A DNA stretch of 64,000 bases from a virus. Shown here in pieces: positions 1 to 18,782 of the stretch; the stretch's first letter is position 1, and every line of letters begins with the position of its first letter. The position numbers were made by a program, and so were the translations under genes. The notes beneath the pieces are model-generated. The model saw only the letters and a list, made by a program, of their open reading frames with translations. It was not told where the DNA came from and did no database searches. The stretch is from UHGV virus genome UHGV-1451962, one strand, 5' to 3'.

Positions 1-65
1 CCTTAGAAGTTATTTTTTCAATGGAAATAAAGAAGATTAAGGGGAAGGAGTTTACGAATTAAAGA

Positions 66-170
66 GATGTTTTATTAAAATATATTTTAAAATAGAGAAA
101 AAAATAATCTAAAATATAGATGTTTTATTAAAATATATTTTAAAATAGAGAAGTTTTATTAAAATAGAGA
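66..170. repeat. direct repeats, 33-bp unit x2 plus truncated third copy
   Basis: 'gatgttttattaaaatatattttaaaatagaga' at 66-98 and 119-151; partial copy 'agttttattaaaatagaga' at 152-170. Confidence 0.85.
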
Positions 171-200
171 AGTGCTCTGCGCAACACTTGTCTACCCATT

Positions 201-266
201 ATCATCTTCAATTCTCATTTATCATCTTCAATTCTCATTTATCATCTTCAATTCTCATTTATCATT
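201..266. repeat. tandem 20-bp repeat, ~3.3 copies (iteron-like)
   Basis: 'atcatcttcaattctcattt' at 201-220, 221-240, 241-260, then partial 'atcatt'. Confidence 0.9.
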
Positions 267-272
267 ATTCCC

Positions 273-300
273 CTGTAAAAGGGGTTATCCCCTTTTACAG
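273..300 (-). terminator. stem-loop at 3' end of the 295..843 gene (possible terminator)
   Basis: perfect 12-bp stem ctgtaaaagggg/ccccttttacag with 4-nt loop; no clean U-tract, so function uncertain. Confidence 0.3.
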
Positions 301-843
301 TAGAGAGTTCAAAAACTTATTAATTCTTTCTGCATCATCATCAATCTTGTTACTAAAAGCCTTAGCAACAGAGAAAAGCTTATTCACCTTATCCAATTCC
401 TTAGTCATGCTTTCAGCCAAAAGATTGATACTATCATCATCAAGACTAATCTCATCAAGCATAGGACGCATAGCAGGAGCAATCTGATAAAGACCCTCAA
501 TCAAAAGAATAATAAAATCCTCAGTAGTAATCTTACCATTACTCAAATGAACAAGAGCATTATTAATTTTTACATGCAGATTACCAAAAATGAAATCTCT
601 ATCACCTTCAACAGGAGTCTTCACCAACCAAAAACTCTTCTTCTTATTCTGCTCTGCCTTAAAAGTAGACTCCGCGGCATTGGCTCGCTCAGAGATATAC
701 TTCATAATCTCATCCATAGACTTGCCCTTGCGCAGCTCATCCATAATATAATCCTCAAACTTCATAGTAGTCTTGCAGTTACAAGAGGAGTTAAGCTCGG
801 CAGTAGAGGCGTTACAGCAATCATTAACCTTATAAGTAGACAT
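295..843 (-). CDS. hypothetical protein
   Basis: 182-aa ORF; promoter/RBS cassette immediately upstream (881-909, RBS complement of 'ttcctttcc' at ~853-861). Confidence 0.5.
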   Translation of the reverse strand: MSTYKVNDCCNASTAELNSSCNCKTTMKFEDYIMDELRKGKSMDEIMKYISERANAAESTFKAEQNKKKSFWLVKTPVEGDRDFIFGNLHVKINNALVHLSNGKITTEDFIILLIEGLYQIAPAMRPMLDEISLDDDSINLLAESMTKELDKVNKLFSVAKAFSNKIDDDAERINKFLNSLL

Positions 844-880
844 AAATTTTTAATTCCTTTCCTTTTGTTTTTCTATATAT

Positions 881-909
881 ATTATATAATAATTTTTTAA
901 TATTTTCAA
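881..909 (-). promoter_or_regulatory. sigma-A-type promoter (TTGAAA-N17-TATAAT) for the 295..843 gene
   Basis: minus-strand -35 is complement of 'tttcaa' 904-909; -10 is complement of 'attata' 881-886; 17-nt spacer. Confidence 0.5.
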
Positions 910-1016
910 TTGCGGATATAGGGGAGTAGTTATTTTGAATTTTCATTTGGAAAAAATTGGGGAATGGAACTCACAATTTCTGAAGGGAAAATTGAAAGTG
1001 AGAGAGAAAAGTTAAT

Positions 1017-1089
1017 GGAATAATAAATCGACCGAAGGTCGATTTATTATTCCTTAGTAAATAAGTCATCCGAAGGATGACTTATTTAC
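1017..1089. other. two adjacent perfect stem-loops with GAA loops
   Basis: 1017-1053: 17-bp stem ggaataataaatcgacc/ggtcgatttattattcc, loop gaa; 1057-1089: 15-bp stem gtaaataagtcatcc/ggatgacttatttac, loop gaa. Confidence 0.85.
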
Positions 1090-1124
1090 GTTATGTAAGT
1101 AGAGTGGTGAAGTAAAATAATACT

Positions 1125-1403
1125 TAAAAAATTAACCTATTTTTTCTGTATGTGGTTATATATATTGGTATACATTTTTTTGAGGTTAATTTTAAATCCA
1201 GATTTTAACGTATTATTATCAATGAGTATGAGATCTTTGCTTCTTTTTTGTACCTATGGTTGAATATAACCATATACAATTTTTTGACGCAAAAATTTTA
1301 TGTTCATTGGTAAACAGTATATTAAAGCTGATTTAAAATTAACCTCAAAAAAATGTATACCAATATATATAACCACATACAGAAAAAATAGGTTAATTTT
1401 TTA
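1125..1403. repeat. 74-bp perfect inverted repeat (arms 1125-1198 and 1330-1403) flanking a 131-bp spacer
   Basis: reverse complement of 1330-1403 equals 1125-1198 base for base (checked manually); spacer 1199-1329 is AT-rich and non-coding. Confidence 0.9.
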
Positions 1404-1495
1404 GGTTATTTTTGTTAAATCTTCCTTATCCAGAATTTATATTTTAATAGTAGAATAAAAATTCTACAAATTTTATTTTAAGGAGATTTAACAAA

Positions 1496-2128
1496 ATGAT
1501 AATTACAAGAAGAAAACTTAGTGAAAAATATTCTATATCGCATAATGTTTGGGATAGAAAACATGATGAATTAATGCTTCATCTTCAAGAATATATGGAT
1601 ATAACTGAATTCAAATCCAATAAAGGCAGATATACCTATGAAATCAAAGGCGAAATGCCTGATGTAATCCCTTCATTAAGAACTGCTCAAACTAAACAAA
1701 AGAAAAAAGATTATGAGAAGTTCACTATTACCGCTTTAGGTACTGAATTCAAACCCAATAGTAAGAGCAAAATCGCCAGAGATGCTATTGCGGATTTTGG
1801 ATATGAAAAATATAAGCATAAATCTCAACGCTTTGTGGCCGAACAATACATCAAAGAGCCATTTAATAAATATGGCATTAGCGATGGAAACCAGTATTGG
1901 TGTTTTTATTCAACCTATGAGGTTATGGATGAAACCATCGTTACTGAGTGGCGCAAAATCCTCTCTGAAGAGAAGATTGGTGAAGAAGAAGCAGCCAATG
2001 CTTTTTACCGCCAAGCGCAAGGAGAAGATATCTCTACCGAACTGCAGTTCTACAAGAACGCCATGAATAGATTTAAAGAAAAGTATAATGATATACCGGT
2101 TCTAGTTAAAAAGTGGAAGTGTAAATAA
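1496..2128 (+). CDS. hypothetical protein
   Basis: 210-aa ORF preceded by 'aaggagatttaacaaaATG'; terminator hairpin downstream at 2228-2286. Confidence 0.55.
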   Translation: MIITRRKLSEKYSISHNVWDRKHDELMLHLQEYMDITEFKSNKGRYTYEIKGEMPDVIPSLRTAQTKQKKKDYEKFTITALGTEFKPNSKSKIARDAIADFGYEKYKHKSQRFVAEQYIKEPFNKYGISDGNQYWCFYSTYEVMDETIVTEWRKILSEEKIGEEEAANAFYRQAQGEDISTELQFYKNAMNRFKEKYNDIPVLVKKWKCK

Positions 2129-2227
2129 CACTTCCACTTTCAACAAACCGAGCGGGCATATGTGTTTCTCTTTCTTTTTCCTTTTCCTTTTGTTTATATA
2201 AATATTATATAATAATTTTAATTATTA

Positions 2228-2286
2228 ATCAACTTGACTTTTATTTTTTCTTTTGTTTTTTGAAAAGTCAAGTTGATTTTTTTTTA
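2228..2286 (+). terminator. rho-independent terminator-like hairpin
   Basis: 15-bp stem atcaacttgactttt/aaaagtcaagttgat with 20-nt loop, followed by a T-run. Confidence 0.5.
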
Positions 2287-2511
2287 TACCTTAAATTTTT
2301 AAAAAGTCAAATGCGGACTTTGACTTGACAAATTAAAAAAAATTTTTTTCCGAGCGGGTGAGCCACTTTCGGGAAAAACCCCGGCCATATGAAGGGTCGC
2401 TAGAAGTCTAGAAAAATCGCCATATGCTAGTGGAAAGGGGATTTCGGGCTGTGACCACTGTCCACAGCCCGCCACTCCTTATATATAGTATACCATAAAA
2501 CCAGCCTTATG

Positions 2512-2712
2512 TCAATCGGCATTTTCACCAAAAGTAAATTTTATTTTATTACTAGGACACTTCACGCACAAATACACATCTCCATTTTCTTCTTTTTGAA
2601 TATAAAAAGTAAATAACTGGCCGGTTTCCATTCCTAGATAATCTCTTAACTTAGAAGGGATAACTAATCGACCAGTCGAGTCCAGCTTTCTGGCAAATTC
2701 AGTTTTCAACAT
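2512..2712 (-). CDS. small AbrB/SpoVT-like DNA-binding protein
   Basis: 'GRLVIPSKLRDYLGMETGQ' resembles the AbrB swapped-hairpin N-domain motif (GRVVIP..LR..LGI). Confidence 0.45.
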   Translation of the reverse strand: MLKTEFARKLDSTGRLVIPSKLRDYLGMETGQLFTFYIQKEENGDVYLCVKCPSNKIKFTFGENAD

Positions 2713-2995
2713 ATCCAGATATTTTTTTCTGATGACCTAGACGTGCGAAATTTCAACCCTAAAACGGGCCTTTCTATCTCTAAAATCTTTAAAGTAATTT
2801 ACCACTCACAAGGCATCTTAGAACAGAAATCACGCATAACACAAACTTCGCAATTATCCTACTTTAGGCAGTATTCAATAATCACCGCAAGTACCTTTAA
2901 TAATTCACAGGTCATTAGAAAAGCTCCTTTCCTTAATTTCTATATATATTATAACATAATTTTTTAGAAAAAACAAAAAAGAACTCTGAGTATTC

Positions 2996-3463
2996 TCAGA
3001 GTTCTTTAGTTTCTGTCACAAAGTATTTGGCATTGTAATCCACCAGAATTTTCTTAACTTGGCTACTCTCCATTTGTGTGGCACAATAAACATTAAAAAT
3101 TGAATATTTACCTACATTTTCAATATAATTATGCGGAATTGAGTTTAGTCTTTCGTGAAGTTGTTTTGTAAATTCACCGGGGACAGTCACCTCAATTCGC
3201 CACAATTTTTCTTTTCTTCCTTTTGCTTCCGCCCACTTAACCGCATACACGCCAACCAGATTACAGCCAAAGGTAACTAATACCTTCTGCCACAGAGGGA
3301 AATCCGCGACTGTGTAAATAAGAACTATATTATAATAACCATAGTACAGAGCAGAAATCATGCTTGCGGAAAATGGTGTACCATTAATAGTTACAATGCT
3401 TTTGATTGTCGAAAAAACCACATTGGCAATGGAGAGACCAATAAATAACAAGAGTAAAGACAA
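2996..3463 (-). CDS. hypothetical membrane protein
   Basis: 155 aa with several hydrophobic segments (LLLLFIGLSIANVVF..., ALYYGYYNIVLIYTV...). Confidence 0.45.
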   Translation of the reverse strand: MSLLLLFIGLSIANVVFSTIKSIVTINGTPFSASMISALYYGYYNIVLIYTVADFPLWQKVLVTFGCNLVGVYAVKWAEAKGRKEKLWRIEVTVPGEFTKQLHERLNSIPHNYIENVGKYSIFNVYCATQMESSQVKKILVDYNAKYFVTETKEL

Positions 3464-3652
3464 TTAAATACCCGCCTTTCTGCACATCACAAAGAACTCT
3501 TCCAGAGGAACCCAAGCCCCATCAATAGTAATCAATGGCCACCAATCTCCTTCACATTCTTTGTCATAGTCCATGAAGTAGTCATAGGCTTTCTGCAAAG
3601 AATCAAACTTCGCAAAATCGCCGTTGTAGCGGTCAGTAATTTTGATAATCAT
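3464..3652 (-). CDS. hypothetical protein
   Basis: 62-aa ORF abutting the neighbouring ORFs in the same orientation. Confidence 0.35.
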   Translation of the reverse strand: MIIKITDRYNGDFAKFDSLQKAYDYFMDYDKECEGDWWPLITIDGAWVPLEEFFVMCRKAGI

Positions 3653-4242
3653 TATTCTTCATCCTCCTTTTCCCAGCAAACAATATATTGTGAGTATTCA
3701 CCATTTGGTTTAAGAAATTGAACCTTATAGCCTGCTTCCTCAAGTATTTGAGTAATAATTTTTGTATCTTCTAGAAGATTAATAGTAGCAGCAAATTTTC
3801 CATCTTCTGCGGCACTTAGAAGATTAAACATAATTTGCCCAAGGGCTTCAGTGATTACTGTAGATCTTGCTTGTAGTGTTTTATCAAGCATCCCTTTAGC
3901 ATCCAACCAGTTCGTAGGTTTTCTAATTTCTATTTCTACCTTCCTTTCTCTATGGAAGAGGGCTTTTCGGCCCTCTTCTTCTTCCATAACTACACCAGCA
4001 AGAATTAAAGTGTTGCAGATGCACTGCCAAGCATAAAGACCCATATTTTGGGGAATGGCTTCCCAAATCTCAGGCCGCAACTTCTTCAGGCCAGTTAGAA
4101 GCATACCGCCCCAGTCGCCACCGCAAGCAACGCACTTGTCCAAAAACTGGCCAAAGGTAATGTTTAACGGCTCACAGCTATCAATAGCTTCAAGAACATC
4201 CTCACCCCAGTTCTTTGCGATGAAGTCTCTGCGTTCATTCAT
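3652..4242 (-). CDS. hypothetical protein
   Basis: 196-aa ORF; promoter/RBS cassette upstream at ~4250-4300. Confidence 0.5.
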   Translation of the reverse strand: MNERRDFIAKNWGEDVLEAIDSCEPLNITFGQFLDKCVACGGDWGGMLLTGLKKLRPEIWEAIPQNMGLYAWQCICNTLILAGVVMEEEEGRKALFHRERKVEIEIRKPTNWLDAKGMLDKTLQARSTVITEALGQIMFNLLSAAEDGKFAATINLLEDTKIITQILEEAGYKVQFLKPNGEYSQYIVCWEKEDEE

Positions 4243-4560
4243 ACTATCAACCTCTTTCCTTAATTTCTGTATTCATTATAGCATCTTTGCCCTGGTTTGT
4301 CAAGACCTTTTTTATTTTTTTTGAAATTTTTAAATCCCCTTTCCTTTTGTGATTATATAATAACATAATTTTGGGAAAATGTCAATAAGTAAAATTGTAC
4401 AAATCAAAAGCAGAAAAATTGTGGAAAATGTATATTGACACGAATTCGGGCCACATCCACCAAGCGCGGCCCGTCGAGTTTTGTTATTGCTTTACTTTTG
4501 CTTATAACAAGTATAGGGATAAAAAAAGGATAGTGGCTATTAACCACTATCCTTTAATAA

Positions 4561-4812
4561 TCAAACATCTTCAATTACGATATTTTCGCCGATCTCTGCT
4601 AAGTTTTGCAAAATATCTGACGCTTCTCCCACTTTTGCGGCATCAATGGTTTCGTATTTGCCAATATAACTATTAGCAGACATCACCTCCCAAATTTGAT
4701 TAAGAATGTCAGAGGCTTGCTCAAGACGATCAATTTCTTCTTGGGATAAGCGAACCTCGCATTGCTTTTCAATAACAATCATGTTCTCTTCCTCCTTATA
4801 GTTCGATCTCAT
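4561..4812 (-). CDS. hypothetical protein
   Basis: 83-aa acidic ORF. Confidence 0.4.
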   Translation of the reverse strand: MRSNYKEEENMIVIEKQCEVRLSQEEIDRLEQASDILNQIWEVMSANSYIGKYETIDAAKVGEASDILQNLAEIGENIVIEDV

Positions 4813-5140
4813 AGGTTTTGCGGATAGTAACCTTTACTTTCTTGGGTTTTTGTTTACAGCAAAATCTGTCATTGCGGACAAATTCGCCGATAGAAGATTC
4901 CTGCCATGCTGCACGATTCTTATCCTCATATCGCAAAGTCGAATACTTAGACAAAGGCAGATGCCAATCATAGACAAACTTAGCGGATTTCGGCATAGTA
5001 AACTTAGGTGAACGCTTATAATTTCTGGTATGCTCTTGCTGTCTCCGGGCTAAATCATTAGTAGTGCCTATTTTGAGAATGTAGTTGCCTTCTACATCAA
5101 AATAGTGACCTACATACAAATACTCTTTCTTTTGTTGCAT
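4796..5140 (-). CDS. hypothetical protein
   Basis: 114-aa ORF. Confidence 0.45.
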   Translation of the reverse strand: MQQKKEYLYVGHYFDVEGNYILKIGTTNDLARRQQEHTRNYKRSPKFTMPKSAKFVYDWHLPLSKYSTLRYEDKNRAAWQESSIGEFVRNDRFCCKQKPKKVKVTIRKTYEIEL

Positions 5141-5197
5141 TTACATCACCTTTTTCGTCAAAATTAGCTCTTTTTTAAGTGAAAAGGGCCAAAAACT

Positions 5198-5587
5198 TTA
5201 CTTTTTGGCCCTTTTCTGAACTAAAGTCAACTCAAAGGCGTTATTATCAACAGAAAAAGCAATCTGTCGCTCAGGATTTGCAATTTTTACATCACAAATC
5301 CCCAAAGATTCAAGAAAACCTGCAAGTTCCGCAATCAAATTTGCTTTAGTGGGGTTCTCTTTTCTTTCTCTTTTAATAGGGGTCTTGCGGTCATGCTTCT
5401 TAGTATGTTGCCCGGTAATAGTATACTTCTTTGCTACCTTTTGTTGTTCCTCGGTCAAATCCCATTCATGCGGGATGCCTTTATCAACCTCGCAGTCTGC
5501 CTTATAGATTTCTACTGCTTTTTCATAACTGCACTTGATGCCAGCTTGGATTCTTGCGATTGCTTCTTTTGCTTTGTCCAAAAACAT
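5198..5587 (-). CDS. hypothetical basic protein, paralog of 9346..9708
   Basis: shares spaced motifs with the 9346..9708 product (D.G...L.EEQ.KV.KK ... NPER.I ... F..TL). Confidence 0.5.
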   Translation of the reverse strand: MFLDKAKEAIARIQAGIKCSYEKAVEIYKADCEVDKGIPHEWDLTEEQQKVAKKYTITGQHTKKHDRKTPIKRERKENPTKANLIAELAGFLESLGICDVKIANPERQIAFSVDNNAFELTLVQKRAKK

Positions 5588-5611
5588 ACCTCCCCTCTAG
5601 GGAAGAGGGCC

Positions 5612-6034
5612 TTAGCCCTCTTCCTCTTCTACCACGGCCTGCGCCTTGTAGAAATGGGCAATACCCTTGTGGGTATCCTTGTAAGCAATACCCTCAGAGA
5701 CAAGAGCCTTGCACATAGGGGCGATACGCTGGGGAGTCAAATCTTCCAGTTCAGGAATGGCCTTGCGGAGCATTGCAATGGTCATACCATCTTCGGTCAA
5801 CTGCTCGGCAATCAGAGCCTTAAAATGCTCATTCTCAGTCTGGCGGGCAGTCTGCTTGCGGGAATTAGAACCCTTCTTAGCATCCAGCAGGCGAATTTCA
5901 TTGGAGAGGAAATCGGTCAGACCCTCAAAGTCAAAACCTTCGTCCTCACGGCCTTCGCACAGTTCCACCAGCTCAATCAGAGACTGGAAACGCTCACGCT
6001 TAGTAATTCTCTTGTTAGTATTTTCCATAAACAC
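5612..6034 (-). CDS. hypothetical protein, paralog of 9768..10124
   Basis: C-terminal region 'TARQTENEHFKALIAEQL...IPELEDLTPQRIAPMCKALVSEGIAYKDTHKGIAHFY' parallels 'TATQTENARLIEVIADTL...IPELNGFTPQKVGPMLKKLVETGRATRDTNKGKAYY'. Confidence 0.5.
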   Translation of the reverse strand: MFMENTNKRITKRERFQSLIELVELCEGREDEGFDFEGLTDFLSNEIRLLDAKKGSNSRKQTARQTENEHFKALIAEQLTEDGMTIAMLRKAIPELEDLTPQRIAPMCKALVSEGIAYKDTHKGIAHFYKAQAVVEEEEG

Positions 6035-6369
6035 CTATCTCGCTTTTGGTTTTTAAGAGTTTGTCCTTCTCTTGATTACATGCTTATTATAGCATGTTTC
6101 TTGGGGTTTGTCAAGAGGTTTCGCAAACTTTTCACAAGATTTACGGCTTCCAGAGCATGTTGGGCAATAACAATTACCACATGATATAAGACTTACCACT
6201 TGATGTATTTCGTTTACTTCCTATACTTTCTCACAGGTCGGCCGCCCTAGGATTTCTTGGGCTACTTCCTCCTGACATTATTTATTATATCAGATTTCAC
6301 CCAAATTGCAATAGGCAAATTGTACAAAAAGCGGGATTTTCCTCAAATAAATTTTGTGCAGTTTAACTC

Positions 6370-6398
6370 TTGACAAATTTTGTGCCGCGTGGTATAAT
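6370..6398 (+). promoter_or_regulatory. near-consensus promoter on the plus strand, opposite to the surrounding genes
   Basis: TTGACA 6370-6375, 17-nt spacer, TGgTATAAT with TATAAT at 6393-6398. Confidence 0.5.
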
Positions 6399-6404
6399 TG
6401 AAAT

Positions 6405-6513
6405 TTCGGCGCTCCACAGTCGTGGGCGCCGCGCCATTGTATCATAAAGCTGCGGTTTTGTCAATAGGCAAAATGTACAAAAAAATGAGGGAAAAATCCC
6501 TCATTTCCTTTTC
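6405..6513 (+). ncRNA. candidate small RNA / antisense transcript
   Basis: downstream of promoter 6370-6398: GC-rich hairpin 'cggcgctccacagtcgtgggcgccg', no credible ORF, then hairpin 'atgagggaaaaatccctcat' (6486-6505) followed by a T-rich stretch. Confidence 0.25.
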
Positions 6514-6777
6514 CACTTTGTCAAGATCAGCTTTCAGACTGTCAAGTTCCTGCTCTTTGTCCATAGTTTTTAATTCAAGCGCAGTCTCTAAATAACGTAA
6601 GTAATTCTGATAGTCATCGGTGCTATACTCAGAAAAAGTGAACCCTTTTCCTCTGAACTTATCTCTTACACGAGTGACACTTTTATGACATTGAACACGT
6701 TCTTCATACACAGCATAACTATCAGTTCCTTTCTTAATTTCTGTATTTATTATAGCGTCTTTGCTTTGAATCGTCAA
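6442..6777 (-). CDS. doubtful ORF (true product probably shorter)
   Basis: ORF runs through its own promoter/RBS cassette (6725-6795) and uses a TTG start; first in-frame ATG is far downstream. Confidence 0.2.
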   Translation of the reverse strand: MTIQSKDAIINTEIKKGTDSYAVYEERVQCHKSVTRVRDKFRGKGFTFSEYSTDDYQNYLRYLETALELKTMDKEQELDSLKADLDKVEKEMRDFSLIFLYILPIDKTAAL

Positions 6778-6805
6778 TAGACAAATTGCACAAAGTGGAA
6801 GATTT

Positions 6806-7339
6806 TTATAACTTCATTCCATTTGTTTGAAATGCTTTAGCTACTTTATCAAAGCAATCTTCCATTTTAAGAATTTCCTGCTTCTTACTTTCTATCTGAA
6901 AAAGAAGATTTACATAAACTTCCTGAAGGTATTCCCGATACCCACTAGCATTGAAGGCGAAAGTATCTCGATAACAAATAGTAATATCACTTCTATTATA
7001 GTGGATGCCTAATTCTTCCCCACCATTAGCCGCGATCAGAGCTTCCTTTGCCGCCACCAGCAGCTCTCTGTATTCCTTATACTTCATAAGAAGCTCGCCG
7101 GCACGGTTTGTTACATAAGGAGCAGTTTCTCTGCATCTAGGCCCATTTGTATCATAGACCGGTGCTTTACCAACCACTTTGATGATATTGTGGTTGAAGA
7201 GAGTTTCCGCCTTAGAGCGTCCCTTACCACGAGCCGCATCATATTTATCAGAGGTGAAGGGTTTATCCCCGAACAGTTTAACAACCTGAGCAGCACCTTC
7301 CAGAACGCTATTGCAATTTTTGATAGAGAACATAATCAT
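6806..7339 (-). CDS. hypothetical protein
   Basis: ORF track start at 7342 is TTG; ATG at 7339 sits 5 nt after the RBS (complement of 'cctttcct'); promoter at 7366-7394. Confidence 0.55.
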   Translation of the reverse strand: MIMFSIKNCNSVLEGAAQVVKLFGDKPFTSDKYDAARGKGRSKAETLFNHNIIKVVGKAPVYDTNGPRCRETAPYVTNRAGELLMKYKEYRELLVAAKEALIAANGGEELGIHYNRSDITICYRDTFAFNASGYREYLQEVYVNLLFQIESKKQEILKMEDCFDKVAKAFQTNGMKL

Positions 7340-7365
7340 CAATTCCTTTCCTGTTTTCTGTTGTT

Positions 7366-7394
7366 ATTATATCATGCTTTTGCTTACTTGTCAA
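7366..7394 (-). promoter_or_regulatory. sigma-A-type promoter with extended -10 (TTGACA-N17-TGaTATAAT)
   Basis: -35 is complement of 'tgtcaa' 7389-7394; -10 is complement of 'attata' 7366-7371; TG at 7373-7374. Confidence 0.6.
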
Positions 7395-7611
7395 GAGATT
7401 TTATCAAATTGCTTGTATCTGTTTCAGTAAGAATTTTTTCCATCTCTTTGACAGATAAGCTGTCTACTTTTCTCTGGAAATCTTTGAGGAGTAAATCATC
7501 CCCACAGATTTCTTCCTCAATATCTACCCACTCTTTGTAAACATGGAGTAGTAAATATTCATCAGGTTCCATCAAAGAACCGCAGACAATGTAGCCATCA
7601 TCCAAAAGCAA
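7384..7611 (-). CDS. hypothetical protein
   Basis: 75-aa ORF. Confidence 0.35.
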   Translation of the reverse strand: MLLDDGYIVCGSLMEPDEYLLLHVYKEWVDIEEEICGDDLLLKDFQRKVDSLSVKEMEKILTETDTSNLIKSLDK

Positions 7612-7986
7612 ACCAGCGTGGACAACCCCTTCAAGGTCGAGAAATAATACCTACTTTGTCATTTGCAAAACTCCCTTTTGTTTTATTTTATCAGAGCGGC
7701 GCCTACTCTGACAGCTTTCTTGTTGTTTATTACTTTGGAGCAATAGAAAAAGCTAAGAAAATCTCCGCATCACTATATGGTTTTTATTTCGTTCATGTAA
7801 AACAACAGTGCAAACAAAATTCTGTAATAATTGGGTTAGCATGGCGGCGGGTGCCTGGTAATATCTATCATTCGCTTTACTCCTTTTTATTTATTTATTT
7901 GCCACTAAAACACTTTATCACCTCCCTTGACTGTACCTGTATTATATCACAGAAGAAAAGCTTTGTCAAGCCTTTTTTGCAATTTT

Positions 7987-8385
7987 TTAATCCTTAATAA
8001 GTTCTTTGGGAATAGTCCAACCAACGGCTCGGCAATAAGCAATAACCATACCAACCGCGGGAATGAAAGTGTCATTTGTTGTGGCTGTTGCTTTTCCAGT
8101 CAGGCGATGATTATTGCTGATAACTTCGCAAACAGTAGTTCTGCCCTCAATACTGAACTTTGCAGAAGTGCCATATAACATATGAGCATTGTCCTCTAAC
8201 CACTTCTGAGCAATAGAAGCCTTGCTTTCTGCGGATTGAACATACTTACGGAGAATAATTCCATCCGAACTGGTGCAAATTTCCAGTGGGTCTCCCTCCT
8301 GAATGTGCATGTTGCGGCGGATCTCCTTGGGGATGACCACCCGGCCCAGGTCGTCGATGCGGCGCACGATACCAGTAGTTTTCAT
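7987..8385 (-). CDS. AbrB-family transition-state-regulator-like DNA-binding protein
   Basis: N-terminus 'MKTTGIVRRIDDLGRVVIPKEIRRNMHIQEGDPLEI...GIILRKY' closely matches the AbrB N-domain (MKSTGIVRKVDELGRVVIPIELRRTLGI...IILKKY). Confidence 0.75.
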   Translation of the reverse strand: MKTTGIVRRIDDLGRVVIPKEIRRNMHIQEGDPLEICTSSDGIILRKYVQSAESKASIAQKWLEDNAHMLYGTSAKFSIEGRTTVCEVISNNHRLTGKATATTNDTFIPAVGMVIAYCRAVGWTIPKELIKD

Positions 8386-8452
8386 ATTTTTTTACTTCCT
8401 TTCTTTTACTGTATTTGTATTATACCATACAGTCCGGTCTTTGTCAAGCCTT

Positions 8453-9097
8453 TTATCTATCAAAACCGCTAAAATCCAAGATGATTGGGCGGTCATTTTT
8501 GTAACCAATGTTGGATTCGTGCAGGTCATTGATTCTGTTCTCAATGACAAACTCGCAAAGAGTTTTGCAAAGTCTTTTGCCATAGATAACAAGAGCCATC
8601 TTAGCCCAAAGAGGGTCTAAGTTTCTTGCATAGCGCCCATTAGGTGCCGCTTTCTTGAAACACTTGCCCATAAGCTGCGCTTTCTGGTCACTTGCGGTTT
8701 TGACCTTAGCCTTGTACTTCTTAAAGGTTTGATAGGAACAGCCACAAACCGCAAAGTCAATTTTCTCTTGCTTGATGAAGTTAATCCCATCTATCGTGCA
8801 GAAAAGCTCGGTCTTGGGGAAGAACATGCCCAAACCTGCTTTAACAGCTTTATTGTACATGTCAACCTCTTTAAGAGCTTCGTCATCAGTAAACTCATCA
8901 GGGTCAGAGTATGTCCACTTGATAACAAAGTCGGCTTTGTGAGGGATGAGACAAATTTTGCTGGAACCATAATCTATAGCGGCTTCACTTCCAAGCTTGA
9001 TTTCTCTCATTCTGCTCTGAATTTCCCAATCGGTCATGGAAGGGTCAATCCTTAACTCTTCAAGCCAATGAAGAACAGTCTGTTCCATCTTTGTCAT
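8453..9097 (-). CDS. hypothetical protein
   Basis: strong RBS (complement of 'ctcctccc' 9103-9110) precedes ATG at 9097 (MTKMEQ...); ORF track start 9166 is probably too far upstream. Confidence 0.5.
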   Translation of the reverse strand: MTKMEQTVLHWLEELRIDPSMTDWEIQSRMREIKLGSEAAIDYGSSKICLIPHKADFVIKWTYSDPDEFTDDEALKEVDMYNKAVKAGLGMFFPKTELFCTIDGINFIKQEKIDFAVCGCSYQTFKKYKAKVKTASDQKAQLMGKCFKKAAPNGRYARNLDPLWAKMALVIYGKRLCKTLCEFVIENRINDLHESNIGYKNDRPIILDFSGFDR

Positions 9098-9123
9098 GTT
9101 ATCTCCTCCCTTACTGTGATTAT

Positions 9124-9152
9124 AGTATAACACGGCAGGTCTTATTTGTCTA
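9124..9152 (-). promoter_or_regulatory. promoter (TAGACA-N17-TGtTATACT)
   Basis: read on the minus strand from 9152 down to 9124. Confidence 0.4.
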
Positions 9153-9211
9153 TTGGCGAAATGCACAAATTCGGAATTTTTGTCTGCCTAGTTTTTATGC
9201 ACTTTTGCCCA

Positions 9212-9240
9212 TTGACAAAAGTCGGATTACCTGGTATAAT
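9212..9240 (+). promoter_or_regulatory. near-consensus promoter on the plus strand, opposite to the surrounding genes
   Basis: TTGACA 9212-9217, 17-nt spacer, TGgTATAAT with TATAAT at 9235-9240. Confidence 0.5.
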
Positions 9241-9246
9241 TGAAAT

Positions 9247-9351
9247 GCGGCAGCGCTTGACCATGCGCGGGCCGCCAAACATTTACCATTGAGAAGTATT
9301 GGGCAAAAAAGAAAACCGGCCTATAAAAATAAGCCGGTTTTGTTATTATTT
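9247..9351 (+). ncRNA. candidate small RNA
   Basis: GC-rich hairpin 'gcggcagcgcttgaccatgcgcgggccgcc', no ORF, ends at bidirectional terminator hairpin 9312-9341 (aaaaccggc/gccggtttt) plus T-run. Confidence 0.25.
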
Positions 9352-9708
9352 TCTAGGAGCGCTTAATGTAATTTTGAAACGTCTTTCATTAAAAACTATC
9401 TCAATTTCTCGCTCTGGGTTATTGATGGTAGTTTCAATTTCAAGTTGTTCAAGAGATTCCGCAATAATCTCAATCAAGCGATGTTTGTCATTGTCAACCT
9501 TGCGCTGTCGGGGAGCATTCATAGTATATTTGCCTTTCTCTTTGCCGGATAACCGCATTTTCTTTTCTACTTTCTTTTGTTCATCAGTAAGTGGGAAAAG
9601 GTCTGCACCTTTATCTATTGCTTCATCATCAGCAATAACTGCCAAAGCTTGTTTTCTATCAAGGTCTAACACCTTCTGAAGATGTTTAACCCTAGCTTCA
9701 TCTATCAT
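9346..9708 (-). CDS. hypothetical basic protein, paralog of 5198..5587
   Basis: 120-aa ORF; see paralog motifs. Confidence 0.5.
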   Translation of the reverse strand: MIDEARVKHLQKVLDLDRKQALAVIADDEAIDKGADLFPLTDEQKKVEKKMRLSGKEKGKYTMNAPRQRKVDNDKHRLIEIIAESLEQLEIETTINNPEREIEIVFNERRFKITLSAPRK

Positions 9709-9732
9709 TAAACACCATCCTTTTTGAGAAAA

Positions 9733-9757
9733 TAAAGAGGGGCATTAAGCCCCTCTT
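9733..9757 (-). terminator. intergenic hairpin between 9768..10124 and 9346..9708
   Basis: stem aaagaggggc/gcccctcttt with 5-nt loop. Confidence 0.4.
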
Positions 9758-9767
9758 TATTTAATTA

Positions 9768-10124
9768 TTACACCATAGTGTAGTATGCCTTGCCCTTGTT
9801 GGTGTCACGAGTGGCTCGGCCAGTTTCAACCAGCTTCTTGAGCATGGGGCCAACCTTCTGAGGGGTAAAACCGTTCAGCTCAGGAATGGTCTTGGTAATG
9901 TCGGAAATGGTGAAAGCTTCGCCCTTGGGCAGAGTGTCAGCAATCACTTCAATCAGACGTGCGTTCTCAGTCTGAGTTGCAGTAGGCTTACCGCTACCAC
10001 GGCTCTTATTCTCCTGCTGATGAAGCAGAATCTCAATCTTGGCACGAACATCGGCAGGAATCTCGCAGTTGTCCAGAACATACTGAAGAGCGCCCTTGTT
10101 AGTAATCTTCTTCTCGTTAGTCAT
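9768..10124 (-). CDS. hypothetical protein, paralog of 5612..6034
   Basis: 118-aa ORF; see paralog motifs. Confidence 0.5.
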   Translation of the reverse strand: MTNEKKITNKGALQYVLDNCEIPADVRAKIEILLHQQENKSRGSGKPTATQTENARLIEVIADTLPKGEAFTISDITKTIPELNGFTPQKVGPMLKKLVETGRATRDTNKGKAYYTMV

Positions 10125-10233
10125 AATATCAATTCCTTTCTGTGCGGTAGGTCGCTACCCTAATTGTTAAGGAAGTGGGGAGGGTTTTCTCTCCCTCACT
10201 TCTCTTATATTATATCATTTTCCTTTTGTTTTG

Positions 10234-10941
10234 TCAAGCGGTTTTTTGATTTTCAAAAAGTTTTTTCCGCATTTTCTTCTTTTGCCGATAGCAGTAAATC
10301 ATAATCTCCCGCTCAATCCGCACATCGTCAAGACCTTTATGTTCTTCCTGAAAAGTGGGGTCTTTGATGATGAATCTATACAGATTTTCTGCTGTTGCTG
10401 AGAGTTTACCAGTTTTGGTTAAGAAACCGTGTTGTTCACAGAACCTTTTATAGGTAGGCATCTTTAGAATAACATCTCTTGCCATTTTGAGAGTATCCCA
10501 AATATCGGTACCATAGGGGAACCAATACCGATATTTACTCTTAGTAGTCCAGCGTTGAAGTAAATTCAATGCGTTCAGGTCGAATCTTGCATTGTGGGCG
10601 ACTACCTCTGTAATACCATATTCTGCCATGTCTGCAAGCATAGCTTGTCGAATCTGGTAAGTGTTAGCTATTTGTCGGATGCCCTGTCGAATATCTTCCA
10701 GATACTGGGGAATCTTTTCCGCATAATAGGCGGATTTCATAAGCTCACTTTCATCAAAGAAAATATCTCGATTAACAAAGGATTGTTCCTTGTAGATATT
10801 CCCTCTTGTATCCATAACACACCACCCGCAATCATAGACAAGAACTGAGGTCATGTCTAATCGGCCTTTTTGGTCAGTGATGGTGTTCGCTGTCTCAGTG
10901 TCCAGAAGCAGAACGTAATGTCTGCGCTTGTCAATGCTCAT
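10234..10941 (-). CDS. DnaQ-like (DEDDh) 3'-5' exonuclease
   Basis: Exo I motif 'LLLDTETAN' and Exo III motif 'VVAHNARFDLNAL'. Confidence 0.65.
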   Translation of the reverse strand: MSIDKRRHYVLLLDTETANTITDQKGRLDMTSVLVYDCGWCVMDTRGNIYKEQSFVNRDIFFDESELMKSAYYAEKIPQYLEDIRQGIRQIANTYQIRQAMLADMAEYGITEVVAHNARFDLNALNLLQRWTTKSKYRYWFPYGTDIWDTLKMARDVILKMPTYKRFCEQHGFLTKTGKLSATAENLYRFIIKDPTFQEEHKGLDDVRIEREIMIYCYRQKKKMRKKLFENQKTA

Positions 10942-10974
10942 GTTGCATCTACCTCTTCCTTAATTTCTGTACTT

Positions 10975-11003
10975 ATTATATCAGATTTTTTCTCATTTGT
11001 CAA
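10975..11003 (-). promoter_or_regulatory. sigma-A-type promoter with extended -10 (TTGACA-N17-TGaTATAAT)
   Basis: -35 is complement of 'tgtcaa' 10998-11003; -10 is complement of 'attata' 10975-10980; RBS complement of 'cctcttcc' 10953-10960. Confidence 0.6.
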
Positions 11004-11022
11004 GAACTTTTTGGCTCCCTGC

Positions 11023-11478
11023 TTAAAGCAGGGAAGCCAAGAAATCAATGATGTCACAAGTTTCAGGATTGACAGTTTCTCCCAAATGCCAACTGTCACG
11101 AACTTTCTTATTATCATCAATAAGAATTGCCTTAGATGCTTTTCTACGAACAGCATCCGCTTTAGTGGCTCCATACTTTAGACCATGAAAGTGGTCATAG
11201 GGGAAACCCCATTTCAAGAGCCAAGCCTTTTTAGCTTCTCGCACAGCCTTTGCATACTCAGGGCTGCTTTCTTTAGAAAGCCAAGTGATGATTGCAATCT
11301 CCCAACCAGCCTGTTTTAACTTGTTAATAAGCTCGTTAAGCTTATCCACGTCCCACATGGGTTTAGCTTCCAGGTAAGGGCTTGTATCTTCCTTCCGCAG
11401 CTTAGACAGCCAACCATTAACCCCATACAGGTCAGCAATAGTGCCGTCCATATCAAAAGCCAACATTTTGTCAGTCAT
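11023..11478 (-). CDS. HAD-superfamily phosphatase / nucleotidase-like protein
   Basis: HAD motif I 'FDMDGTIAD' near the N-terminus; start taken at the MTDK ATG (an in-frame TTG at ~11487 is also possible); ORF track start 11586 runs through the promoter. Confidence 0.55.
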   Translation of the reverse strand: MTDKMLAFDMDGTIADLYGVNGWLSKLRKEDTSPYLEAKPMWDVDKLNELINKLKQAGWEIAIITWLSKESSPEYAKAVREAKKAWLLKWGFPYDHFHGLKYGATKADAVRRKASKAILIDDNKKVRDSWHLGETVNPETCDIIDFLASLL

Positions 11479-11536
11479 AAGTGTCAACTTCTTTCCTTTA
11501 TTTCTATGGTAATTATACCACGGTAAGGCCCAAATG

Positions 11537-11722
11537 TCAAGCCTTAATTTCTTCAATGTCAAGAAGAATTTCACCAGTAGAATCATCTACCAAGTAATAC
11601 ATTGTAGTAGCATACTGAGCTAACCTATGAAAGAAATCCTCTGCCAATGAAAAGGAATCAAAAGGCCCGATAATTTCTTCATCGCCAACATGATAGATAG
11701 AATAAGTCTGCTTCATATGCAA
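11537..11722 (-). CDS. hypothetical protein
   Basis: 61-aa ORF. Confidence 0.3.
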   Translation of the reverse strand: MHMKQTYSIYHVGDEEIIGPFDSFSLAEDFFHRLAQYATTMYYLVDDSTGEILLDIEEIKA

Positions 11723-11731
11723 TACCTCCTA

Positions 11732-11889
11732 TCAAAAGATATGAATGAGAGTTTCATTCCCATTCTCTTCCAGATGACACTCATAGACAGAGCCTTTCTT
11801 GCGGGTTGCGTTCCGCATTGCGATACCCTTGTTATCAAAGTGTATCTGCCAACCATTGGGGAAAACTACCAGCCAGTCACGGTATTCGG
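11732..11889 (-). CDS. hypothetical small protein
   Basis: RBS (complement of 'ggcctccttttg') precedes 'MTEYRDW...'; the longer ORF-track version (to 12124) crosses promoter sequence. Confidence 0.35.
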
Positions 11890-12049
11890 TCATACTTTTG
11901 GCCTCCTTTTGTTTTCTGTAATTATTATAACAAAAATTTTTAAGAAATTCAATAATCAATTTTGATGATGTTTTGTCGCTATACTTTTTATAAACAAATG
12001 CCATTTCGGGATGAATACTTCCGGGTAAAATCACCAAACTTTCCTCTAA

Positions 12050-12115
12050 ATTTTTGTGCAATTTGCGCATTGACAGAATTTCGGCGCACACTGGGAGGTC
12101 ATGGTCGTGTGCGCG
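12050..12115 (+). other. third copy of the GC-rich hairpin element (cf. 6405-6440, 9247-9280)
   Basis: 'gaatttcggcgcacac...gtgtgcgcgccgccgc' shares the 'aatttcggcgc...gcgcc' core with the 6400 element. Confidence 0.3.
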
Positions 12116-12185
12116 CCGCCGCAATTATTATACCATACTTTTGCTTTGTTGTCAATAGATAAATTGAACAAAAAATTTTTATTTA

Positions 12186-12203
12186 TTTTTTTTTTTTTTT
12201 TTT
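12186..12203. repeat. 18-nt homopolymer T tract
   Basis: uninterrupted run of 18 T on the plus strand. Confidence 0.9.
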
Positions 12204-12250
12204 ACTGCTAGAAGCCTAGAAGTTTCATCATATAAGCATATAGCAAAAAT

Positions 12251-12273
12251 AAAAAGGGCCGCAAGGCCCTTTT
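12251..12273. terminator. bidirectional rho-independent terminator
   Basis: 'aaaaagggccgcaaggcccttttt': GC stem gggcc/ggccc, loop gcaa, flanked by A-run and T-run. Confidence 0.6.
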
Positions 12274-12570
12274 CACTTCCAAGTTTTTTCAAGTGGATTT
12301 TTGTTTATTTTACCGGAACCTTAATGGCCCACAAGCTTTCTAAACAGTCAAGCCCTATGTAAGACTCGCTCGCTTTTTCAAAAAGCTTTTTCTCCACTTC
12401 CTCCAAAGTCATGCAGAGATATTCTTCAAAGAAGTCAGGAGAAGCGTCTTTCTGTATCCTCGCAATCATCTCTTTTATTGTTGTTGCTTTGTCATAGGCT
12501 CATTACCATACTGGTCAGAAACTATAATGACGTAAGCATCTTTCTTTATAATAATCAACTCCTTTTCTTT

Positions 12571-12903
12571 TTACCACATGTCAACGTAGTGCTGTTTGTC
12601 ATTGGGATACTTGTGCTTAACAAGCGTGGCACATTCCTCATCATCGGTCGCAAGTCTGAGTTTGCTATCCACCAGAGCCACCAGCTCAGGAGCAGCTTCC
12701 TTGTAAAGAACTTCCAGCAGTTCTTTCAGAGCGCCTTTACCATAATAGCGGTAGTCCTCAGCAGTAATCTTCCAGACCATGATTTTCTCAGGGTCATAAC
12801 CGCAGTTGGGATAGTAGAGAGTCAAGTCTCCATCGTGAAGCACATAAGCGCTTTCATAGTAGGTTGCGGTGTACTGACTGTCGAATAGTTCCTTGTTAGT
12901 CAT
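12571..12903 (-). CDS. hypothetical protein
   Basis: 110-aa ORF with promoter/RBS cassette upstream. Confidence 0.55.
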   Translation of the reverse strand: MTNKELFDSQYTATYYESAYVLHDGDLTLYYPNCGYDPEKIMVWKITAEDYRYYGKGALKELLEVLYKEAAPELVALVDSKLRLATDDEECATLVKHKYPNDKQHYVDMW

Positions 12904-12934
12904 CTTTTGTTTCCCCTTTTTTTATCTTGATTAT

Positions 12935-12963
12935 ATAATACCATAATTTTGAGAAAACGTCAA
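12935..12963 (-). promoter_or_regulatory. promoter (TTGACG-N17-TATTAT)
   Basis: almost identical to the promoter upstream of 3652..4242 ('ttttcYcaaaattatgKtattatataatca'). Confidence 0.5.
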
Positions 12964-13054
12964 TAAGTAAAAATGCACAAATTAAGAATAAAAATTTGTA
13001 CAATACAAACAAAAGAAAAAGGAAGGCCGCAAAACCTTCCTTTTTCACTGCTGT

Positions 13055-13420
13055 TTAGAACAAATCTTGAAGCTGTTGAATAGCTTCATCAATATTGCAC
13101 CAGTTACCAGTGTGTTCATTGAGCACCAAGAGGGCTTCTTCTCCCGGAGTAAGAGAAGGAATTTTACAGTTGAAGCTAATGAAATAGCGCTTGAGCAATT
13201 CAACGGCTTCTTTATTACCATCGCACAAGATAGCAATAATAGGTGCAGGATTAGCTTTAAGGTTGAGCTTGACTTCGCCGAGCTTATCATACAGCTTGAA
13301 GCTATCCTCGCAACGCTTCGCCATTTCTTCCATCTCATGCAAGTTGCAGCTGTCATAGTCCTCAAAAACCTCACCGCAATACTCACAGAAGTAGACTGTC
13401 TTTTTCAACATAAAAATCAT
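13055..13420 (-). CDS. hypothetical Cys-containing (zinc-binding-like) protein
   Basis: 'CEYCGEVFEDYDSCNLHE' near the N-terminus. Confidence 0.45.
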   Translation of the reverse strand: MIFMLKKTVYFCEYCGEVFEDYDSCNLHEMEEMAKRCEDSFKLYDKLGEVKLNLKANPAPIIAILCDGNKEAVELLKRYFISFNCKIPSLTPGEEALLVLNEHTGNWCNIDEAIQQLQDLF

Positions 13421-13477
13421 CCTTTCTTTTATTATGGTCTTATTATACCACAGACTAAGCTTCTTGTCAAGACTTTT

Positions 13478-13650
13478 TTACAAACATTCAACCACTTCCC
13501 AAATCTGCTGATACTCTTCATAAGAGTTGGCGAAATCATTCTTACTGGCTTCATCGCGGCCCTCTTCTTTAATCCATTCCTTCCACTTGTCAAGGATCGC
13601 CTTGTTAGCTTTGTCCATCTTAACACCAATGATCTTCTTGATGTTCTTCA
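13478..13650 (-). CDS. hypothetical small protein
   Basis: RBS (complement of 'cccctttcctttt') precedes ATG of 'MKNIKKIIG...'; ORF track start 13726 overlaps the promoter. Confidence 0.4.
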
Positions 13651-13893
13651 TTTGTTTTATCCCCTTTCCTTTTGTAATTATATAATAACACACTTGCCGC
13701 AATAGGTCAATAGGCATACTGCACAATTCGGGATCCCAATTCTCTCTCTAAATTTAGCTATTTTGACTATTGATTTTGAGCAGACTTTGTGGTATACTGA
13801 TTCGGAAAGTTGCCTTGTAAAACGAAGACATTCGTTTATAACAAGTATGTTAAACAAAAGGAAAGAGATAAGCTAAGCTTACCTCTTCTCCTA

Positions 13894-14109
13894 TCATACT
13901 ACTTCATACTCATCATACTTCTTAGCCAAGACTAATACTTCCTGATATATCTTCTTTGGTATAATGTAAGCCCTCCAACGCAGGTCGCCATTAGGTTTGA
14001 AAGAAGTCTTTCTCCAACCAAAGAAGCATCTCCATAGAAAGCTTTTGCCCTCACAATACATTTCAATAAAATCTATCATACATTCATTGTCTATCCAGTA
14101 TTTTTTCAT
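13894..14109 (-). CDS. hypothetical protein
   Basis: 71-aa ORF. Confidence 0.35.
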   Translation of the reverse strand: MKKYWIDNECMIDFIEMYCEGKSFLWRCFFGWRKTSFKPNGDLRWRAYIIPKKIYQEVLVLAKKYDEYEVV

Positions 14110-14309
14110 ACTTCTCCAACCTCTCTTTTATTTTTAACCTTACAAAGTTCAATCTTGATTGCCTGACCATCAGGAAAGACTAAGCACTTGCGCAAACCAG
14201 AAGGAAAGCGAAACCATTGAACTTTAGCCCACTGCCAACTTTCTCCCTGGTAGTTGTTTCGCCATGTCTTAACAGGTGAGCAAGCATAGAACTCAAAAGT
14301 CTTTTTCAT
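14106..14309 (-). CDS. hypothetical protein
   Basis: 67-aa ORF overlapping the next gene start by 4 nt (coupled arrangement). Confidence 0.35.
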   Translation of the reverse strand: MKKTFEFYACSPVKTWRNNYQGESWQWAKVQWFRFPSGLRKCLVFPDGQAIKIELCKVKNKREVGEV

Positions 14310-14415
14310 TTGATCTTTCCTCCTTTTACTATCTATAGTATACCATACCTTAACCAGAATGTCAATACCTTTTTCATTTATTTATTTATAAAATAAAAAA
14401 GAAAAATGGTTCTGC

Positions 14416-14763: not shown

Positions 14764-15104
14764 AGGTCATTGACCCCTTTCCTTAATTTCTGTATTTATT
14801 ATACCATCAAGACAGCCTTTTGTCTATTGACACATTGAACAAAAGAAAAAGAAATTAAAAGTTCTTCTTTGTGCATTTTGCTGAAGAATAATTTTGTTTA
14901 ATTCGCCTATTGACAAGACCATTTTTCTTTTGATTAATGAATAGTTGTTTACAGAAGATACTGTTTGATGGGGCCTTTGTGGGGTTAATGGATATTTACC
15001 AATGAAAGATAGTTTAATGGTTTGGCGTACTCCGGGGTAGTTTTCGGGAAAAAAATTATATTTGTTATTAAAAACCATTTGGCCTGGACACTTCTCTCTC
15101 TAAG

Positions 15105-16535: not shown

Positions 16536-16537
16536 TT

Positions 16538-17714: not shown

Positions 17715-17727
17715 TTATTTCTCTCCT

Positions 17728-18697: not shown

Positions 18698-18782
18698 AAA
18701 TAATTACTTTTAATAAAACTCGCCAAAGGCGAGTTTTATTAAAAATTTTTTTTCATTTTTAATTAATATATCTAAAAATTTT

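Follow-up and report, generated by a model that had tools for sequence, protein, structure and literature searches.

What could a perfect promoter be doing on the strand opposite to every gene around it, when it has no credible gene of its own to transcribe? Two loci in the window, that is, the whole stretch of 64,000 nucleotides analysed here, raise this question. The window belongs to a siphovirus-like phage of ~30% GC overall, in which a portal gene (25391-27013), a 2871-aa tape-measure protein and a sigma-factor-like gene at 18847 are recognizable. Small minus-strand genes occupy 2-18.7 kb, an AbrB-like protein is encoded at 7987-8385, and the late genes run on the plus strand from 18.8 kb, the late region having its own promoter at 18783. 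When positions 1-20000 were scanned for consensus promoters, 13 sites matched TTGACA-N17-TGnTATAAT perfectly (12/12); 11 lie on the minus strand, and the only two on the plus strand, starting at 6370 and 9212, are indeed those that a first-pass annotation of the sequence had described as perfect promoters pointing against their neighbours. Since these matches are perfect and a perfect match of 14 bases is expected by chance only ~1e-4 times per 20 kb, the two plus-strand promoters are non-random.

Several other features of the window were recorded alongside. Over the early region at 4000-14000, where the elements described below lie, GC content is 38-42%, and over most other parts it is 26-33%. 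The nearest named relative by portal protein is the gut phage Phass-1 (OQ749652.1, 38% identity), which is placed in the "Caudoviricetes code 15 clade"; the ORFs of the window are long and intact under the standard code, and it carries no tRNA genes. Near its start are three copies of a 25-30-nt repeat (58-171) and a perfect 20-nt unit present three times (199-265), and these repeats at 58-265 may mark a genome end, a packaging site or an origin. An 84-nt inverted repeat follows at 1115-1198/1330-1413, its arms 95% complementary and separated by 131 nt, and five tandem iteron-like AT-rich units of 34 nt (..TCTAAATCAATTTNAAATTTAAAAAACGA..) lie between early genes at 15094-15263. At the other end, a diversity-generating retroelement occupies 60051-63998 on the minus strand, with a reverse transcriptase at 60051-61307, a template repeat at 61586-61693 and a variable repeat at 62384-62491; the repeats are 80% identical, differ almost exclusively at adenines of the template repeat, and the variable one forms the 3′ end of a Big_3-domain ORF (62370-63998).

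The two plus-strand promoters, referred to here as P+, are each followed by TGAAAT and, 8-9 nt on, a GC hairpin (Table 1), as had been noticed, and the predicted plus-strand RNAs fold much better than shuffled sequences (z = -5.4 for copy 1 and -3.0 for copy 2). In copy 1 the hairpin starts 8 nt past the -10 box of P+ and 4 nt past that of a minus-strand promoter, P-(a), which faces P+ from the other side. The first-pass annotation missed this promoter, and with it the face-to-face arrangement, in which the predicted start sites are ~24 nt apart and flank the hairpin. A promoter scan revealed no usable facing minus promoter at copy 2, where GCC-AAAC comes directly after the hairpin. Behind P+, back-to-back with it, stands the minus-strand promoter of the next cassette, P-(b), with 58 bp between the -35 boxes in copy 1 and 59 bp from the -35 box of P+ in copy 2, where it has the conserved upstream motif TTTGTGCATTTCGCCAA. 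A second promoter class in the window shares an upstream motif, TTTGTRCAnTTTGCCTA-TTGACA, at 6306-6335, 6459-6484, 6770-6796, 9147-9169, 12150-12175 and other sites; in relatives the motif is lengthened by TTCCCGA. The hexamers of this class are usually below consensus, and the promoters may therefore depend on an activator.

Table 1. Predicted elements of the five module copies in the window (P+, plus-strand promoter of the module; P-(a), minus-strand promoter facing the hairpin; P-(b), minus-strand promoter of the next cassette)
Feature	Position	Strand	Description
P-(b), copy 1	6284..6311	-	next cassette promoter; TTGCAA-16-TATAAT, 10/12
P+, copy 1	6370..6398	+	TTGACA-N17-TGgTATAAT, 12/12; antisense to every neighbouring gene
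GC hairpin, copy 1	6407..6431		6+4 bp, 1 bulge; CGGCGC-T-CCAC-AGTC-GTGG-GCGCCG
P-(a), copy 1	6436..6464	-	TTGACA-N17-TGaTACAAT, 11/12; faces P+ across the hairpin
Terminator of upstream minus-strand gene, copy 1	6479..6510	-	intrinsic; T7 run on minus strand
P-(b), copy 2	9124..9152	-	TAGACA-17-TATACT, 10/12; drives gene 8453-9097
P+, copy 2	9212..9240	+	perfect extended -10 promoter
GC hairpin, copy 2	9247..9275		5+4 bp; GCGGC-A-GCGC-ttgaccat-GCGC-GG-GCCGC
Terminator of minus-strand gene 9346-9708, copy 2	9312..9341	-	minus-strand tail CTTTTTT
Copy 3 ("type 2")	12070..12125		plus TTGACA 12070-12075 fused to GAATTTC and hairpin 12082-12118
P-(a), copy 3	12127..12155	-	perfect promoter facing copy 3; predicted transcript starts at the hairpin
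Hairpin relic	2446..2470		ATTTC-GGGCTGTG...CACAGCCC-GCC; same orientation, without plus promoter
Type 2 hairpin relic	4435..4472		TTGACA-cGAATTC-GGGCC...GGCCC; -10 on neither side

The terminator-like hairpins that had been assigned to the ends of the two plus-strand transcripts are present, but they are mainly minus-strand terminators, with their T-runs on the minus strand. Their plus-strand tails, ATTTCCTTTTCC in copy 1 and GTTATTATTTT in copy 2, are moderately T-rich, and that of copy 1 makes its terminator partly bidirectional. In the window, copies 1 and 2 probably give RNAs of ~105-110 nt that end at such partly bidirectional terminators. The minus-strand ORF 6442-6777 runs through its own terminator hairpin (6510-6479), and meets its first stop codon in frame, a TGA, at the TG of the extended -10 belonging to the promoter at 6464..6436; either the terminator shortens the message before the stop, or the element has replaced the original gene end. 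A small Cys-rich minus-strand ORF (6053-6199; ..CGNCYCPTCSGSRKSCEKF..) downstream of the promoter at 6311..6284 is a candidate gene; it extends across the promoter that follows, and tblastn gave a weak match in one related locus, L159. On the plus strand, copies 1 and 2 contain only TTG-started ORFs of 25-65 aa with no ribosome-binding site, and the view that no credible ORF is present can be upheld. A 51-aa minus-strand ORF across copy 1 (6290-6445) was rejected as a gene, because hairpin lengths in the family vary out of frame; its tblastn matches are due to conservation of the DNA motif. Likewise, the variation of hairpin length in steps that are not multiples of three indicates that the element is not coding.

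The third GC hairpin that had been proposed proved to be real, with the qualification that it has no plus-strand -10 and is predicted to be transcribed from the minus strand. In this copy the plus-strand TTGACA is fused straight onto the GAATTTC-hairpin, so that the spacer and the -10 are absent. A run of ~19-25 T's lies nearby on the plus strand (12181-12205), between a terminator at 12250-12275 and the promoter at 12155. A covariance model of the family, described below, matches copy 1 (6390-6451; 56.1 bits, E = 2.7e-11) and copy 2 (9232-9292; 52.6 bits, E = 1.7e-10) and gives 12.4 bits for copy 3. It also adds two relics to the three copies first counted, one matched at 2441-2489 (16.1 bits) with an adjoining minus promoter at 2515..2487, the other, with its hairpin at 4448-4472, matched at 4443-4491 (12.6 bits). 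The window therefore has five copies, all in one orientation and all inside 2.4-12.2 kb; three of the five have no P+, yet hairpin and orientation are kept. In type 2 variants, found at 4435-4472 and 12070-12118 of the window and in five other loci (L108, L141, L149, L158 and L162), TTGACA stands 7 nt before the hairpin, exactly where TATAAT usually is. The identical absence of 23 bp in three unrelated type 2 sequences makes independent deletions seem unlikely.

A first pattern built from the window copies led to related elements in viral contigs, which were examined as pieces of up to 14 kb. One pattern, ATGCACAAAWTYGGGAAA, was too strict, returning only a single locus (L004) as a family member, and a scan of genome contigs for the promoter plus TGAAAT gave 104 matches that were mostly ordinary promoters, the three family members among them all lying on contigs that resemble mis-binned phage. 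A second viral pattern, in which the -35, the -10 and part of the spacer were the sole constraints, identified 51 viral loci, and nearly all matches were followed by (G/T)GAAWTTC and a GC hairpin. The covariance model (R1), built from these relatives and used at a cut-off of E <= 1e-4, found 96 copies, 68 of them distinct, at 50 loci on 42 phage contigs of 20-400 kb, many of 100-200 kb; copies within any one locus are all co-oriented, and the densest locus, L135, has seven copies in 7 kb. In an independent scan of metagenomes, with nothing constrained after GGAAWTT, at least 115 unique sequences were obtained, and at least 101 of these 115, among the matches listed, show, 6-11 nt past the -10, the start of a perfect GC stem 6-16 bp long. 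The same distance holds in 48 unique viral elements, and it emerged from patterns that left the hairpin region unconstrained. The sequences of the hairpins are extremely diverse, at least 98 different ones occurring in the 101 metagenome elements among the matches listed.

Homologues of window early genes (2996-3463, 5198-5587, 5612-6034, 10234-10941 and 11023-11586) are common to the window and the other loci, so the phages that carry the family look like one broad clade. The genes convergent to P+ are varied, with 35 clusters among 69 proteins, and the element follows members of the family of window gene 9346-9708 in eight loci. Among isolated phages, megablast and blastn detected no relative of the region and no typical element, and the first 50 kb of Phass-1 contain no element. 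An Rfam scan had been suggested as a check. No family of Rfam 15 matched the window at the gathering threshold, a permissive scan of 5900-12400 gave only sub-threshold matches at chance level, and in eight other loci with ~30 copies the only match was a tRNA. By these sequence comparisons, the two window promoters are true members of a large, previously undescribed family of big gut and rumen phages.

Covariation, the other check that had been suggested, gave a clear outcome. RNAalifold on the raw MAFFT alignment returned no structure, owing to register shifts, a problem solved by aligning with the covariance model. In that alignment all 11 modelled pairs change on both sides, and the covariation score is 0.36 as against 0.15 for shuffled alignments (0 of 500 reach 0.36) and at most 0.16 with slid partners. 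The core stems comprise 376 Watson-Crick, one GU and no AC pairs in the viral set, and at least 911, 2 and 14, respectively, among the metagenome matches listed, so that in both sets at least 98% of pairs are Watson-Crick. Which strand folds is a separate matter: in a wobble-pair test that included a terminator control, the asymmetry between GU and AC was inconsistent, the excess of AC in the metagenome matches listed contrasting with one GU against no AC in the viral set, and folds of the whole region showing the opposite. From wobble pairs, the plus strand cannot be singled out as the one that folds. Past the hairpin comes GCC-AAAA when the plus strand is read and GGAAWTTC when the minus strand is; neither strand has the U-tract of an intrinsic terminator there. 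Conservation around the hairpin is limited to the flanks GGAAWTTC and GCC, with no conserved sequence in stem or loop; the spacer of P+, AAATTGCTGG, is conserved in the family.

The geometry of the module is equally regular. Gene orientation was judged by purine skew, the purine fraction in the window being 0.45 on the non-coding and 0.555 on the coding strand; a crude longest-ORF test was uninformative. The P+ strand is purine-poor in 43 of 44 downstream and 37 of 40 upstream viral flanks and, among the metagenome matches listed, in at least 84 of 86 and 87 of 91, respectively. P+ is thus antisense in ~92-98% of flanks, over at least ~150 unique members among the matches listed, and in one locus oriented by a homologous gene (L009) all four copies are antisense. 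The next hairpin downstream is preceded by an A-run in 38 of 45 viral cases and at least 46 of 64 metagenome cases among the matches listed, and followed by a T-run on the P+ strand in only 11 of 45 and at least 9 of 64, which identifies it as the terminator of the opposite-strand gene; it lies a median 78-104 nt past the -10 of P+ (viral set and metagenome matches listed). The rarity of T-runs on the P+ strand means that for most members the length of the P+ RNA is undefined, and it makes a discrete small RNA of ~110 nt unlikely as a trait of the whole family. The proposal of small antisense RNAs thus stands in part: the units are non-coding, promoter-driven, opposite to early genes and aimed at a 3′ end and terminator, while a discrete small RNA seems not to hold for the family. 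On the other side of P+, the nearest divergent promoter is 58-60 bp away in 26 of 37 viral cases and 57-60 bp away in at least 47 of 66 metagenome cases among the matches listed, and a minor class at 45-48 bp corresponds to one helical turn less. A conserved 27-nt motif, TWGGCAAAATGCACAAAWTYGGGAAA, lies between the two promoters beside the divergent one, and the unit is in effect half of a rigid bidirectional promoter. In at least 21 of 100 members among the matches listed, there is also a facing gene-sense promoter with its -10 2-5 nt after the hairpin.

What, then, might such a unit do? Placed as it is between co-oriented early-gene cassettes, it is best read, tentatively and short of being probable, as a unit of cis-antisense or insulating transcription whose hairpin stabilizes the RNA at the 5′ end. 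P+ is a consensus promoter of the host sigma-A type, on the strand opposite the genes, from which host RNA polymerase may be expected to fire strongly. Transcription is predicted to start 0-3 nt ahead of a perfectly paired, sequence-variable GC hairpin, and one can presume that a hairpin at the very 5′ end would shield the RNA from 5′-end-dependent decay of the RNase J1 or RppH type. P+ and the promoter of the following cassette stand back-to-back, their -35 boxes a fixed 57-60 bp (or 45-48 bp) apart, and P+ points head-on at the intrinsic terminator of the previous cassette. Its RNA would have complementarity to that terminator, to the 3′ end of the mRNA before it and to any read-through transcript. 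The RNA, together with head-on polymerase traffic, could limit or destabilize sense transcripts crossing the cassette boundary, an effect resembling that of lambda OOP or that of an insulator guarding the next promoter. In copy 1 the palindrome might cap the facing minus-strand transcript as well. Against this reading it can be said that most members have no T-run to end the P+ RNA, that strong antisense transcription reaching into the upstream gene would carry a cost, that wobble pairs do not favour the plus strand as the folded one, that P+ has been lost from three of the window's five copies, and that a gene-sense promoter accompanies the hairpin in the fraction of listed members given above.

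If the proposed action is true, a large uncultured clade orders its early genes by a repeated, phased module of promoter, antisense promoter and hairpin, and such a module would amount to a natural insulator or antisense regulator, compact and with clear rules of geometry. It would account for strong non-coding promoters that confuse the annotation of such genomes, serve as a signature for the clade and its early regions, and offer parts for synthetic biology in Firmicutes. The architecture is conserved and readily testable by mapping of 5′ and 3′ RNA ends. A bolder version, which we consider unlikely, is a genome-wide, dedicated system of "antisense capping" in a clade of gut and rumen phages with genomes of 100-200 kb, in which a hairpin-capped head-on unit closes each early cassette in phase with the promoter that follows. 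Early genes would thereby be insulated, timed or shut off in a new way, with a possible double role as an early-to-late switch, and copying at the DNA level might maintain palindromes that are hypervariable yet perfectly complementary.

The hairpin could also work in the gene-sense RNA or in both strands, as a shared 5′ cap or stabilizer, or as a processing or antitermination site, for transcripts from P-(a) or read-through transcripts, with P+ being secondary. In favour of this, the hairpins at 2446-2470 and 12082-12118 keep a minus promoter only, and that at 4448-4472 keeps no promoter, yet orientation and flanks are retained in all three; the gene-sense promoters in the listed metagenome members point the same way. 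Stems so nearly free of wobble are equally good on either strand, and the AC pairs in the listed matches would place more wobble on the gene-sense strand, although these 14 cases include a recurring loop subfamily (ACC..GGC) and are thus not independent. It speaks against such a role that the facing promoter is absent in ~80% of members among the matches listed, that the constant distance of 6-11 nt is measured to the -10 of P+, that the densest locus has seven copies with P+ and none with P-(a), and that the element has no conserved boxA/boxB-like or put-like sequence; we hold it to be unlikely, though not far-fetched. Another possibility, distinctly unlikely in our view, is that the DNA or the act of transcription matters rather than the RNA, either through a phased bidirectional promoter partner (polymerase recruitment, supercoiling, operators) or through the palindrome as a cruciform or protein site. 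The rigid spacing of 57-60 or 45-48 bp, one helical turn apart, the conservation of both the 27-nt motif and the P+ spacer, and the near-perfect complementarity of the arms across at least 98 different sequences among the matches listed all fit with this. Palindromes vary inside one genome, however, which argues against a common DNA-binding protein, consensus promoters need no help from supercoiling, and the placement of the hairpin exactly at the transcript start would be left unexplained. Lagging-strand priming was judged unlikely because the copies cluster in the early region only.

The repetition of the module up to seven times in 7 kb between small variable genes, and the diversity of the adjoining genes, recall a mobile promoter-terminator cassette of the PeSL (promoter-early stem-loop) kind, that is, a recombination site shuffling early-gene cassettes between phages; in addition, window 6300-6350 resembles a degenerate duplicate of 6455-6500, the two flanking copy 1. 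But the promoter is antisense, unlike in PeSLs, some gene-element adjacencies are kept across eight loci, and in a crude test 24 of 315 internal BLAST end points between related loci fell within 50 nt of an element as against 20.8 +/- 4.4 for random positions; this explanation seems improbable. Less plausible yet is a read-through or antitermination switch, in which a put-like hairpin would make polymerase resistant to terminators and the P+ transcripts would silence early genes in antisense while feeding late transcription. P+ is co-oriented with the structural genes of the window, the reversed terminators mostly have no T-runs, and the RNA structure is promoter-proximal, as it is in put or nut systems; the single variable hairpin, however, is not the conserved two-stem put fold, boxA plus boxB is not present, there are many copies 1 kb apart, and the late region has its own promoter as well as a sigma-factor gene. 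A trans-acting decoy RNA, as had also been suggested, whether an RNA anti-CRISPR mimicking a solitary repeat or a sponge titrating a host RNase or RNA-binding protein, we regard as highly improbable. It would suit a strong promoter and a small structured RNA with no ORF in an accessory and early region, and Racrs have been described as solitary repeats driven by a promoter (PMC10651486). Yet hairpins differ between copies of one phage, seven different ones occurring in the seven-copy locus and at least 98 among the 101 metagenome matches listed, which makes a sequence-specific decoy unlikely; one host has few repeat types, and an RNA anti-CRISPR would come in one or few types per phage. It was on account of this hairpin diversity that a CRISPR-repeat mimic was rejected. 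The loop is not conserved, flank conservation being limited as described, and a trans-acting RNA would have no need of strict antisense placement. The sequence TGGTATAATTGAAAT resembles what we take to be the end of a type I-C repeat, presumably by coincidence.

Of the readings weighed, we continue with the cis-antisense or insulating unit, and its place among known systems may now be considered. Face-to-face promoter switches operate in phages P2 and 186, and similarly copy 1 and ~20% of the family, among the matches listed, have facing promoters with overlapping 5′ ends. Here, though, the overlap is only ~25-35 nt, is a palindrome, and neither transcript encodes a regulator. The antitoxin RNAs of type I toxin-antitoxin loci in Bacillus subtilis prophages are 3′-overlapping cis-antisense RNAs. 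In phage lambda, oop overlaps cII by 52 bases and exerts 3′-overlapping antisense control (PMC5869508). Like OOP, the module is predicted to give a non-coding transcript from its own promoter, convergent to a gene and complementary to the 3′ end and terminator of that gene; the convergence of the promoter is seen directly, and the overlap follows by geometry from predicted RNA ends. Unlike OOP, it occurs up to seven times per genome beside many unrelated genes and not at a single locus, has a GC hairpin at its 5′ terminus and a fixed spacing to the promoter of the next gene, usually lacks a proper terminator of its own, and shares no sequence homology with it.

PeSLs of T4-like phages are composite motifs between small variable early genes (PMC4122927), and the module shares with them a conserved promoter and stem-loop motif repeated between such genes. 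A PeSL promoter reads in the same direction as the genes, which the stem-loop terminates, whereas here P+ is antisense, the hairpin stands at the transcript start with no T-run after it on either strand, and the crude test gave no breakpoint enrichment. In phiKMV-like Pseudomonas phages, a conserved antisense promoter in the early region has been proposed to block transcription (PMC10914365), and a conserved promoter against all genes, acting as a barrier into early genes, is what is proposed here too; theirs is a single promoter for the phage RNA polymerase, while in the present family multiple host-type consensus promoters are combined with a hairpin and a divergent partner. The 5′-terminal stem-loops of ermC, the aprE leader, papA and ompA are established mRNA stabilizers (literature listed in PMC3997798); they resemble the module in that a stable hairpin lies only a few nucleotides from the (here predicted) 5′ end, and differ in preceding a coding sequence, the module having no downstream ORF. 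We found no description of the phased, multi-copy composite module, or of its wide distribution, in Rfam, among isolated phages or in the literature retrieved; cis-antisense transcription and a 5′ hairpin, its ingredients, are of a known kind.
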